Source: Squalus acanthias (lineage: Eukaryota). From it: a DNA stretch of 64,000 nucleotides. A model generated the notes under the pieces. It did no database searches and had not been told where the DNA came from. It was given only the letters and a program-made list of their open reading frames with translations. The stretch spans positions 136,216,001-136,280,000 of the forward strand of contig CM059431.1 of assembly GCA_030390025.1 (NCBI GenBank), in the 5' to 3' direction. Positions within the stretch are counted from its first letter, which is position 1. Each line of letters opens with the position of its first letter. Made by a program: the position numbers and the translations under genes. This document shows, in pieces, positions 55,336 to 62,385 of this stretch.

Positions 55336-56795
55336 ATTGTGACTTGCTAACTTTATCCCCTGCCTTTCCAAATTCACATTTACACAAAACGAACCGGAAG
55401 AGGCTTTTGAAGTTTAGTTATCTGCTCCAAAGGTTTCAAATATCCCTTCAACCGTTCAGTCTCTCATGGGAAAGGAGCGTCACGCCGGGTTAACAGCCCT
55501 TGGAGCATGCATGGCCCATTTCCCACTCCCCTGTTCTCAATCTTCCCTCTTATCTCGCAACAACCACAAGGTCCACTTATCTTCACCTGGCGCCCGCCAG
55601 CCTCTGCAATCACCATAGGAACAGTAGGAGGCCATTCAGACCTTCGAGCCTCTTCCGCCATTCAATGAGATCATAACTGATCAGCGCTCTAACTCTATAT
55701 ACCCGCTTTTAGCCAATATCCTTTACTAACTTTGGTTAATAGAAAGCGATCAATCTCCGATTTAAGATTAACAACTGATCTAGCATCAATTGCCGTTTGC
55801 AGAAGAGAGTTCTAAACTTCTACCACCCTTTGTGTCTAGAAGTGTTTCTTAATTTTACTCCTGAAAGGTCTAGACTTAGACATAGGAATGAAAAACACAA
55901 TGGCCCAGAAATTAATGACGGAGCCTTCGTGCGGGGGTAAGGCTTCCCCGCGATATCTCACTGCGCGCCTGCCTTTTCATTCCGAGCTCGCACGAACTTG
56001 ATTTTCTAGACAGCAGCTGTGCAGTGCTTCCGTATCCCACAGGCGCAGTTAATTCGTGCGAGCTGTGGGATCACGTGATTCAGTTAGAGCCAATGGCAGC
56101 ACACCATCTTTCATTCATAGTTTTCACATCAAGTGCTGTGAAAGCTATGAATCTATACCCCCTCAAAAGAACAGCTAAACCTCAATAAAAAAAAATTAAA
56201 AACCCATCACATTAATAAAATAAGTATAGTTAAATAAATTAACCACTTTAAACAAAAAATTAAATTTTTGAAAAAATTTAAAGGGGTAAAAATTCAGTTG
56301 GTTGCGCCTCCCGTTAGCGCCTTAAATGGGCGCTAATGTGGCGTTAAGGCGCTAACGCCCGGGCGCAGCGCTGTTTGCGCCGCTCGAGAACTTAACTTGA
56401 GATTGTGCGGCGGCGCTAAAACTTACCGCTGCGACCACCTGCGCGCGCAGATTGTGACGTCATTCCGTGGTGCAACGCCCTTGGGGCGCCCCGGAGCGGA
56501 AATTGAGTGGCGCCCCCTGCCTTACCGCCTGGCGCTTCCAACGACCGGAAGACTGGAACGTTATCAATCGGTGTGGGGCTGGGGGGGGGCGCTATTTAAA
56601 GGGGGCCTCTTCCTGTCTTTTTCTGTGGTCGACATTTATGCACCACTCGTTCTGAGAGAGAGAGAGAGATTCGGAGAGAGAGAGAGAGAGACTTCTACAT
56701 TGACTCAACGCTTTGTGAGGTAGTTTTGCCTAGTTCATCCTAACTTTGCTGCTACTTTCGTTGCTGTACCTCATTACTTTTCTGGCAAAGAGAAT

Positions 56796-57956
56796 ATGGG
56801 GGCTGCAATGATTGGGGGCGTCGTCCTGCTCCAGCTCAATCGGAGGAGAGTGAGACGCAGACAGAGAGTGGCAATGATGGCCAGACGGAGGAGGGCCATC
56901 AGGCGCATGTACAGGAGAGCTTACCCTCCCAGGGTATATCGTGAACAGCTCTCCTACATCCACATGTCCGAGGAGCTGTGTTTGCGAAGGCTGCGATTCA
57001 GCAAGGAGGTGGTCACTGAGCTCTGCCACCTGCTGCAGCCAGATCTGCAGCCTCAGCTGAGGTCCAGGACGTCTCTGTCGGTGGCAGTGAAGGTCACAGT
57101 GGCTTTGAACTTCTACGCCACTGGCTCATTCCAAGCTGCTGTTGGGGACCTCGCCAATATCTCCCAGTTTGCGGTGCATCGCTGCATCCGGCAGGTCACC
57201 AATGCCCTCTTCACAAGGAGACGAGACTTCATCTCCTTCCCTATGACCCCAGACAAGCAGCATGACCGTGCTATGGGCTTTGCGAGGGTAGCGGGCTTCC
57301 CCATGGTGCAGGGCGCCATTGACTGCACGCATGTGGCTTTGCATGCTCCGCGAGAGAATGCAGAGGAGTTCCGGAACAGAAAGGGGTTCCATTCCTTGAA
57401 TGTGCAGTTGGTCTGTGACCACAGACAGGTGATTCTCGCTGTCAATGCCCACTATCCGGGCAGCTGCCACGATGCTTTCATCCTGCGCCAGAGTACTGTG
57501 GCAGAAATTTTCGAGGCACCGCATCAGCCAGTTGGTTGGCTTCTGGGGGACAAGGGGTACGCATTGAGCACCTGGCTGATGACACCGCTCCGTGCGCCAA
57601 ACACCCCTGCTGAGCTGCGGTACCAGGAAAGCCAACAAGCAACGAGGAACATTATTGAGCGCACAATCGGCGTGCTCAAACAACGATTCCGCTGTCTGGA
57701 CCATTCCGGAGTAGCCCTGCAGTACTCGCCTGAGCAAGTTTCCAAATTCGTAGTGGTGTGCTGCATGTTGCACAACATGGCAATCCTCAGGACGCAGCCA
57801 ATGCCACCAGGCCTTGCAGCACCACAAGAGGAGGAGGAGGAAGAGGAGGAACAGGCCGAGGACGATGATCAGCAGCAGCACCAAGGCAGGAGGGCGGCCC
57901 ACAATGGTCAAACTGCAAGGGCCGTCCGTCAACGACTAATAGCAAGCCGCTTCTAG
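56796..57956 (+). CDS. Harbinger DDE transposase (HARBI1-like), 386 aa, intact
   Basis: CLRRLRFSK, ALNFYATGSFQ, GAIDCTHV (D), NRKGFHSLNVQLVCD, YPGSCHDAFIL, LGDKGY (D), IERTIGVLKQRFRCL (E), CCMLHN. Confidence 0.96.
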   Translation: MGAAMIGGVVLLQLNRRRVRRRQRVAMMARRRRAIRRMYRRAYPPRVYREQLSYIHMSEELCLRRLRFSKEVVTELCHLLQPDLQPQLRSRTSLSVAVKVTVALNFYATGSFQAAVGDLANISQFAVHRCIRQVTNALFTRRRDFISFPMTPDKQHDRAMGFARVAGFPMVQGAIDCTHVALHAPRENAEEFRNRKGFHSLNVQLVCDHRQVILAVNAHYPGSCHDAFILRQSTVAEIFEAPHQPVGWLLGDKGYALSTWLMTPLRAPNTPAELRYQESQQATRNIIERTIGVLKQRFRCLDHSGVALQYSPEQVSKFVVVCCMLHNMAILRTQPMPPGLAAPQEEEEEEEEQAEDDDQQQHQGRRAAHNGQTARAVRQRLIASRF

Positions 57957-60276: not shown

Positions 60277-62385
60277 GCTTGGCAGCAAAATGGATTACAG
60301 GTCTCTCCAGGCTGTGATTCAAGGCTGCAATGAGCAGGGTGTGGCTGGGGAGCAAGTGGCCCCCCCGCTTTAAGAAGTGTCCGGCGCCAGTGTGTCTGTG
60401 TTCCCTCGCTAACTGGCAGCAGCTGCGCTGCGCTCGTGCGCTGAGGTAGCGCCTCACTCCTAGGCCTTTGCGCCTTAAGAGAGGTGTGCAGCGCCTAATT
60501 TAGCGCTCCACTCACCTCCCGGGGCGGTAAAAGTGAAGTTTCCTGTCAGTGCCGATAATTAGCGCCAGGCGCTAATATTTGCGCGCGGACGATATTTGCG
60601 CCCCAAATGGGGCGCGACCTAATTTCTACCCCAAAATCTTTTAAAAAGTTATAAAAATAAACTTACCTTTCTTTAAAGTCTCTAAAAAAGATATACCTGT
60701 TGAAAAAAATTCAAAATAATACTTAATTAACTACTTACCTTGTTAAAAGAGGGTCTTACGCCTCCTTTCTTTATGTGCAAAATCTTCCATGCTTACCTGC
60801 GCGTTCAAAGCACTAAGTACACTGCGTGCGCGCAGCCTGTAGCGCGCACGCGGTTCACCTAGGTACCGCCCCCTTTTGAAATCACCAAGTGCTGGTTTTC
60901 AGCGCATGCGCAGTGCATGCAGAAAACCGGCAATTGGAGACAGAATACGCGAGAGTACACAGTGCGTACTCTCGCGTAGAGACACAAATTTTTGGGCCAA
61001 TTTCTAAATTTGCGGATGACACCAAATTGGGTGGTGGGGGGATAGTCAATACTGAGGAGGACTGCAACAAGTTACAGGAGGACATTAATAAACTCACAGA
61101 ATGGGCATATAATTGGCAAATGAAGCTCAATACAGATAAATGTGAGGTATTACATTTTGGTAGGAAAAATAGGGAGGTCACTTATCACTTGGAGGGTGCG
61201 AGTCTAGCTGGGGTAGAGGAACAAAGGGATCTCGGAGTACAAATACACAAATCACTGAAAAGCAATCCAAGCTCTCGGGTTTATTTCTAGAGGGATAGAA
61301 TTGAAAAGTCGGGAAGTTATGCTAAACCTGTATCGAACCTTGGTTAAACCACACTTAGAGTACTGCGCACAGTTCTGGACCCCATATTATAAAAAAGATA
61401 TAGAGGCACTGGAGAGGGTGCAGAGAGGATTTACAAGCATGATACCAGAAATACGAGGGTATACATATCAGGAAAGGATGAACGGACTGGGTCTCTTTTC
61501 TCTTGAAAAAAGAAGGCTGAGGGGTTTTTAAAATTATGAAAAATTTTGATAGAGTGGATGCAGAAAAAATGATTCCACTTGTGGGGAAGAGCGTAACTAG
61601 AGGCCCATCGATATAAGATAGTCACCAAGAAATCCAATAGGGAATTCAGCAGAAACTTCTTTACCCAGAGAGTGGTGTGAATGTGGAACTCGCTACCACA
61701 GGGAGTGGTTGGAGCAAATAGTATAGATGCATTTAAGGGGAGGCTAGACAAGCATATGAGGGAGAAGGGAATAGAGGGTTATGCTGATAGAGTTAGATGA
61801 GGAAAGACTGGAGGAGGCTCGAGTGGAGTATAAACGCCGGCATGGACTGGTTGGGCCGAATGGCCTATTTCAGTGCCGTATATCCTATGTAATCCTATTT
61901 AATCCTATATCTGGCTCTAAATTTTAGACTATTCCCCCTAGTCCTAGACTCCCCAACCAGCGGAAATAGCTTCTCTCTATCTACCCTATCAGTTCCCCTT
62001 TTGTCTTGAAAACTTCGATCAGATCACCAGATGGACTTCTGAAGTTATTGCAACTATAATACAATCCCACCACCAGAATGTCCTCCTCTCGCTTCCTCCT
62101 TCCTATCTGTTTTCAAAAGAGATTTCCGTCTCCAACACCCTTGTTCATTCTCCCACCTACCCAACCTTCAGCTGCCCTTCCCTAGACACTTTCCCTTGCA
62201 ACTACTGCACCTCCGATATTACATAAGAACATAAGAAATAGGAGCAGGAGTAGGCCATTCGGCCCCTCGAGCCTGCTCCGCCATTCAATGAGATCGTGGC
62301 AAATCTTCTGCCTCAACTCCACTTTCCTACCCGCTCCCCATAGCCCTTGATTCCCTTAATATTCAAAAATCTATCGATCGCTGTC

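Follow-up and report, generated by a model that had tools for sequence, protein, structure and literature searches.

Nested, ladder-like subfamilies and purifying selection on shared changes in a Harbinger-type transposon family of Squalus acanthias

A stretch of 64,000 nucleotides of the Squalus acanthias genome (assembly GCA_030390025.1, contig CM059431.1, positions 136,216,001 to 136,280,000; hereafter the window, whose own coordinates are used throughout) contains a Harbinger-type DNA transposon at 56283–60632, with a DDE transposase gene and a convergent Myb/SANT gene. A reading made from the letters alone (the sequence-only reading) had presented it as a complete, young and candidate active two-gene element, which raises the question of whether this copy could itself move, and of how the family it belongs to has persisted in its host. 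As an element, it is a further member of an already known class. The family history is unusual, in that a nested ladder of subfamilies, selection on shared changes and an excess rate of change together suggest renewal within the host lineage, which is not expected of such elements. We lean towards the view that the family has long renewed itself inside that lineage through successive working source copies, the window copy being a damaged member of the youngest tier.

The family is large and young. Exact matches to 30-mers from the left end, right end and transposase core numbered 7,545, 8,592 and 6,515, respectively, in 3.71 Gb, while reversed 30-mers used as controls had 0 matches. When 35 of 3,817 candidates were scored, 25 were full length at 96–99%. 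The 30 best-scoring copies were all full length, differed by 0.24% on average, and over 4,063 columns departed from the majority by 1–11 substitutions each; none of the 435 pairs among them was identical, and both genes were open in 16 of the 30. The young PIF/Harbinger-type family that the sequence-only reading had proposed is therefore supported, given that the copies are neither all diverged nor a single fixed ortholog, but number in the thousands. As the best-scoring set carries score bias, we also took the first 80 transposase 30-mer matches on one contig (one 44-Mb stretch), a less biased sample whose exact-match filter still favours less mutated copies. Full-length copies made up 73 of these, with the transposase open in 46, the Myb gene in 38 and both in 25. 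Extrapolated from this one exact-match-filtered stretch, the family would occupy ~0.7% of the genome and include ~2,000 copies with both genes open. At the mutation rate of the epaulette shark, given as 7e-10 per base per generation (PMC10587355), the 0.12% private divergence corresponds to ~1.8 million generations, so low divergence is no proof of present activity, and we put the chance that the family is still moving today somewhat below even. Insertions 0.1–0.2% old may still be segregating where diversity is ~0.2%, the epaulette shark value. As the host mutates slowly and the full-length copies, in their thousands, have barely decayed, selection, rate and changes to the ends can be read tier by tier.

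The 73 full-length copies do not form a single burst. Their tree is a ladder, with 11 copies lying <1% from the window's tier (the tip), 11 at 1–2%, 11 at 2–3%, 7 at 3–5%, 23 at 5–6.5% and 10 at >6.5%. Across 185 diagnostic sites, old states drop away in nested fashion (~180, 164, 149, 138, 103, 62, 40, 26 and 2), and the losses are dispersed over the element; for most intermediates the number of runs is close to that expected by chance. Nearest-neighbour distance grows with distance from the tip (rho 0.78), private divergence increases with tier, the left and right halves of most copies lie at similar distances, and bases of the terminal inverted repeats (TIRs) differ between tiers. Both genes are open in 18 of 35 copies under 4%, in 5 of 23 at 5–6.5% and in 0 of 10 beyond. 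Low intron divergence (1.0–1.7% versus 7.2%) was set aside as a signal, being found within tiers too, and mismatches in the target site duplications (TSDs) were too noisy a clock for dating tiers. Omitted from the sample were the 7 partial copies of the 80, and from the ladder, selection, rate and recombination analyses L058 (flanks in common with L056); L100 (flanks in common with L099) was omitted from later selection, rate and recombination analyses, and the 10 copies >6.5% from the tip from the selection count. Columns of a tandem repeat and of an 87-bp duplication were masked. Both L056/L058 and L099/L100 look like segmental duplicates.

Selection was assessed from the sharing of variants among 62 present-day copies, by comparing changes private to one copy with those shared by at least five. 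Private transposase changes comprised 46 synonymous and 120 replacement changes, with a ratio of nonsynonymous to synonymous rates (dN/dS) of 0.97 and 7 stops, while shared changes comprised 47 synonymous and 44 replacement changes (dN/dS 0.35) with no stop (p 2.2e-4 for the contrast). The Myb domain (residues 1–100) behaved likewise, with a dN/dS of 1.23 for private versus 0.28 for shared changes (p 0.012), and stops made up 13 of 256 private versus 0 of 87 shared changes (p 0.044). Constraint was strongest between the 5% and 2% tiers (34 synonymous versus 19 replacement differences). Purifying selection acts on the shared, not the private, changes of the transposase and Myb domain, and we consider a long in-lineage ladder under selection to be probable.

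A common host clock is expected for all copies within a genome, so the spreading lineage can be said to have changed faster than the resting copies. Using a 9%-tier outgroup, tip copies had a mean of 165 unique changes versus 44 in 5%-tier copies (1,694 triplets, non-independent, all p <2.1e-7), and two farther outgroups gave 163 versus 43 and 158 versus 47, which is ~3.7 times more change along the spreading lineage. For the 2% tier the figures were 63 versus 27 and 54 versus 33. The kind of change also differed: CpG transitions accounted for 154 of 609 private changes (25%) versus 35 of 248 shared changes (14%), and C–G transversions for 59 (10%) versus 52 (21%) of the same totals.

A cycle that could produce this pattern begins with known Harbinger biology, whereby the Myb protein would bind the ends and recruit the transposase, and the transposase would excise the element and paste it elsewhere (a Myb-like protein that binds both the ends and the transposase and permits excision is described in PMC9179366); copy number would climb when the host refills the gap from the sister copy. 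Most resting copies would be methylated, as CpG decay suggests, and hence neither expressed nor moved, leaving a few open copies in a germ cell to act as enzyme source and substrate at once, and thereby to be selected for working proteins. Among long terminal repeat (LTR) elements, expression of one copy per cell is described as able to mimic cis-preference (PMC7070016). Error-prone gap repair in each round would then add extra, transversion-rich changes; repair after excision in rice is reported to raise nearby mutation rates >10-fold (PMC5023962), and translesion polymerases act in gap repair in Drosophila (PMC3330096). We offer this methylation and repair mechanism tentatively, as something less than likely. 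The fuller claim of a vertically persisting, LINE-1-like cut-and-paste lineage, under purifying selection without horizontal transfer, running at about four times the host clock via mutagenic copying and retaining those ~2,000 both-open copies, seems to us rather unlikely.

Several results weigh against long self-renewal under selection. The Myb tail is unconstrained (dN/dS 1.05 private versus 1.95 shared), and from the 2% tier to the tip there are 12 synonymous versus 17 replacement differences, with the conserved transposase residues N277 and H280 lost there. The rate test of the 2% tier fell short of significance in some triplets, polarity at the protein level leans towards the same excess but not significantly, at 19 versus 10 (p 0.14), and the triplets are not independent and come from a sample chosen by one exact 30-mer within one 44-Mb stretch. 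A non-coding derivative of 893 bp (884–896 bp) has the same termini as the full-length element and was present in 20 of 20 loci examined (L071–L090; 13 picked by end spacing and 7 by a lone left-end match); its abundance indicates that mobilisation in trans works well, which should weaken selection. One copy, L053, is a two-part mosaic that resembles the 3–4% tier on its left and the 1% tier on its right; together with its unmatched TSDs, this is consistent with recombination between two loci. Four-gamete conflict climbs with distance, from 0.13 to ~0.23, and single-base TSD mismatches (5 in 22 5%-tier copies) exceed the prediction from the 1.7% internal spread of that tier, although the youngest copies, too, include 3 imperfect TSDs in 30. 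In published work, DNA transposons across 307 vertebrate genomes were described as neutral within genomes, a transposase being argued to be unable to recognise its own copy (PMC7070016), and a 2026 model describes DNA transposons as self-limiting (PMC13558583).

The main rival is repeated horizontal transfer, in which the lineage evolved in other hosts with a faster clock and came back into this genome on many occasions, with each entry selecting for working proteins and setting off one burst. Purifying selection on DNA transposons is known to arise from horizontal transfer (PMC7070016), and repeated transfer would equally yield both the selection signal and the rate excess. By listing, sequencing runs filed under six organisms share roughly half of the sampled words or more; however, close relatives that had inherited the older tiers would produce an identical listing. 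The nested ladder would demand many successive entries from one evolving donor, and no protein among 221 matches at E ≤1e-50 exceeded 65% identity to the window transposase. Nearly all named entries among the best 120 of those matches came from sharks and rays. In the transposase phylogeny that the sequence-only reading had suggested as a check for horizontal transfer (36 long homologs), the window protein clusters with sequences from sawsharks, and shark and ray sequences split from five others, four bony fish among them, with support 0.999. Given the 65% identity of the best homolog and this grouping, there is no sign of transfer from outside the cartilaginous fishes; repeated transfer as a whole we regard as unlikely. 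Neutral amplification, by which recombination or gene conversion among a few old subfamilies made both the ladder and the short tips, with selection predating entry into the genome, would accommodate the mosaic L053, the rising four-gamete conflict, some unmatched TSDs and the weaker constraint near the tip. Yet the intermediates show scattered nested states rather than blocks, the halves of most copies are similarly distant, and private divergence rises with tier, which makes this account quite improbable. A two-parent block mosaic was also tried as the cause of the ladder and rejected, with a clear fit only in L053 and smaller left–right differences in several 1–2% copies.

Long self-renewal in the host lineage thus remains the reading we favour, and it leaves the standing of the window copy itself to be settled. 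That this copy is a Harbinger-type two-gene element is practically certain. Its parts and setting are as follows.

55902..60998, no strand: non-autonomous element that the Harbinger insertion interrupts (the host element), with TIR GGCCCARAAATT and an AAT duplication; 744 bp without the insert
56280..56282, no strand: left TSD, AAA (from flank sequence and empty paralogous sites)
56283..60632, plus strand: Harbinger-type DNA transposon copy, 4,350 bp (from family matches and common ends)
56283..56294, plus strand: left TIR, GGGGTAAAAATT, pairing with the right end at 11 of 12 bases
56593..56600, plus strand: TATA-like motif, of putative function
56796..57956, plus strand: open DDE transposase reading frame, 386 aa, with private R183H and G306V and tier-wide N277Q and H280Q
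58068..58123, no single strand: opposed AATAAA signals of putative use (58068–58073 minus, 58118–58123 plus)
58251..59325, minus strand: Myb/SANT predicted exon 3, frameshifted in the window copy
58997..59170, no strand: 87-bp in-frame duplication in exon 3, a marker of the youngest tier
59010..59026, plus strand: run of 17 C's that disrupts the Myb frame (9 C's in most copies)
59485..59647, minus strand: Myb/SANT predicted exon 2, with in-phase AG/GT sites in 30/30 copies
59678..59893, no strand: 54-bp variable tandem repeat in predicted intron 1
60040..60276, minus strand: Myb/SANT predicted exon 1, encoding the DNA-binding domain (PF13873 match; GTGAGT donor in 30/30 copies)
60621..60632, minus strand: right TIR, GGGGTAGAAATT, an inverted match to the left end at 11 of 12 bases
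60633..60635, no strand: right TSD, AAA (from flank sequence and empty paralogous sites)

The transposase matches PF13359 (DDE_Tnp_4; E 6.9e-38, 130 bits, cut-off 24.8) and has D176, D252 and E288, which we take to be the DDE triad. A search of PDB sequences yielded no real relative, only two weak matches, the better one (E 0.013) on the acidic tail. Exon 1 of the second gene matches PF13873 (Myb_DNA-bind_5; E 1.1e-9, 38.5 bits, cut-off 21.7), and the predicted GT/AG sites at 60040, 59647, 59485 and 59325 are in phase and kept in all 30 best copies, splicing being predicted from sequence. The matching TIRs, the 3-bp TSD, the uninterrupted transposase, the convergent three-exon Myb/SANT gene, and the TATA-like and AATAAA motifs of the sequence-only reading were accordingly all found where it had placed them; given the opposed AATAAA signals, the two predicted 3' ends would overlap. 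Its claim of completeness did not survive. Eight extra C's at 59010–59026 put Myb exon 3 out of frame, and the predicted product is therefore 265 aa rather than the 488–490 aa of 21 of the 30 best copies; none of the alternative splice sites enumerated restored a full-length product. Copies vary in how many C's they have here, and the run of 17 could be an assembly error rather than genuine. The copy also carries nine private substitutions, among them R183H, at a position that is R or K in 48 of 59 homologs, and G306V, at a position that is G in 51 of 59. Furthermore, N277 and H280 (N in 55 and H in 47 of the 59 homologs) are replaced by Q in 11 of 11 youngest-tier copies, and because these conserved residues were lost tier-wide, the youngest transposase may be altered or weakened. 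All 11 copies <1% from the tip carry the 87-bp duplication, as against 0 of 62 others, and the number of 54-bp repeat units differs among the 30 near-identical copies over a length range of ~430 bp. Judged on its sequence, the window copy is damaged and could move only with proteins supplied by other copies. That it is itself complete and possibly active, as first proposed, has in its favour an open transposase, intact ends and TSD, and a Myb break that lies within a homopolymer, a context prone to assembly errors; set against the eight extra C's and the substitutions at conserved sites, we find this very improbable. Of the proposal of a candidate active element, the part concerning a young family with open copies stands, whereas the window copy is a poor candidate.

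The ends at 56283 and 60632 recur in 30 of 30 best-copy loci, and 11 of 11 empty paralogous host copies hold a single AAA at the insertion point, which proves the 3-bp duplication. The sequence-only reading had overlooked that the element is nested inside a 744-bp non-autonomous element, whose arms lie at 55902–56282 and 60633–60998 and whose empty paralogous copies measure 743–745 bp in 11 of 11 cases (40 scored of 1,917 candidates). This host element has at least 40 copies at 99% over the right arm, with mostly AWT duplications, and at L006 the Harbinger has inserted into a further apparent copy of it. To the right of the host element, broken reverse-transcriptase-like frames at 60880–61778 presumably belong to a CR1-type long interspersed nuclear element (LINE).

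Across the family, a perfect 3-bp TSD was found at 67 of 82 sites (55 of 73 in the one-contig sample). The palindromic target consensus from 62 distinct sites with a perfect duplication was ARACWC-NWN-GWGTYT, with A at −5 in 0.90, T at +5 in 0.89, and C and G next to the triplet in 0.68 and 0.71 of sites; the middle base of the central triplet was A or T in 59 of 62. An octamer-like repeat, which we take to be a CR1 tail, occurred at 6 of 53 sites of the unbiased sample. The narrow-sense PIF/Harbinger rule is a TWA duplication, and TAA or TTA duplications were found at 14 of 62 sites. The duplication of that narrow-sense group is described as AT-rich (PMC4482050). Features of the PIF/Harbinger (PHIS) superfamily found here are a DDE_Tnp_4 transposase, a Myb/SANT second gene (though broken downstream in the window copy), TIRs and a 3-bp TSD.

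Several described systems can be compared with the family. Harbinger3_DR of zebrafish, a reconstructed element, also pairs a transposase with a Myb-like gene and has a palindromic 15-bp target, AAACAC-CWG-GTCTTT (PMC3016246, PMC9179366), whose flanks closely match those above; it differs in its CWG triplet, where the present family has NWN (CWG at 2 of 62 sites), and in having needed reconstruction, while many natural open copies are retained here. NuwaI and NuwaII, two groups of the PHIS superfamily, are described as having DDE and Myb/SANT reading frames, lengths of ~4.4–4.7 kb and TIRs of at least 12 bp starting GG or GGG, much like the present family, and NuwaII prefers C-TNA-G, the modal pattern here; however, TNA occurs at just 17 of 62 sites, the same 2 of 62 count runs against the CWG rule of NuwaI, and among the hosts we noted from that description there is no cartilaginous fish (PMC4482050). 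The 12-bp TIR is below the usual 25–50 bp (PMC9179366) and inside the 12–61 bp range given for NuwaI. Harbinger-Snek of sea kraits resembles the family as a large vertebrate expansion that includes derivatives and, in one species, 269 intact copies, but is described as one sharp burst after horizontal transfer covering 8–12% of the genome, in contrast to ~0.7% and a 0–12% ladder here (PMC8437027). LINE-1 of mammals is similar in dynamics only, showing a subfamily ladder and purifying selection in one host lineage; it is, however, a retrotransposon whose proteins act preferentially in cis on the mRNA that encodes them, and such cis-preference is said to be impossible for cut-and-paste elements (PMC6562965, PMC7070016). 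The domesticated genes HARBI1 and NAIF1 are of the same protein families (PMC9392472), and homolog database entries are labelled 'putative nuclease HARBI1'; thousands of dispersed copies with TIRs, TSDs and neutral private decay set this family apart, and the 6,515 exact matches do not fit a single-copy, TIR-less HARBI1 gene.

Active PIF/Harbinger elements are already known (10.64898/2026.05.26.728016), and Harbinger-like elements are reported to cover 0.002–0.14% of teleost genomes in a 2022 survey that called for examining more cartilaginous fishes (PMC9179366). In a 2025 account of the grey reef shark, Tourist/Harbinger elements are the commonest DNA transposons, treated as a repeat class only (PMC12498223). 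Our literature search, which left subscription papers, supplements, Dfam and Repbase aside, found no earlier description of this family or of its pattern of ladder and selection. The family offers a direct test of the rule that DNA transposons are neutral within genomes (PMC7070016) and, if the fuller claim of LINE-1-like vertical persistence is true, would contradict the rule under which vertebrate DNA transposons that stay in one host lineage decay neutrally. Natural copies with both genes open, drawn from several tiers (L004 in the tip tier, L034 and L049 in the 1–3% tiers, for example), could serve as a vertebrate Harbinger system that prefers a 15-bp target and needs no reconstruction.

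Some further observations concern derivatives, insertion loci and homologs. The ends of the 893-bp derivative are ~8% and ~15% from the youngest tier, its copies are 1.7% apart, and its right TIR occurs in old and new forms, the same right-end variants as in the full-length tiers. Four pairs of different loci (L002/L021, L022/L029, L005/L082 and L087/L088) have the same or nearly the same flanks, which suggests either duplications or common repeats acting as insertion hot spots. Among the homologs, four clades of Harbinger transposases (P0022/P0025/P0065, P0040/P0041, P0010/P0013 and P0005/P0006) join distant sharks and rays on very short branches, for example 0.04–0.07 among sawfish, catshark and bamboo shark; some of their members carry altered catalytic motifs, and these clades may be shark- and ray-specific domesticated genes, or transfers.

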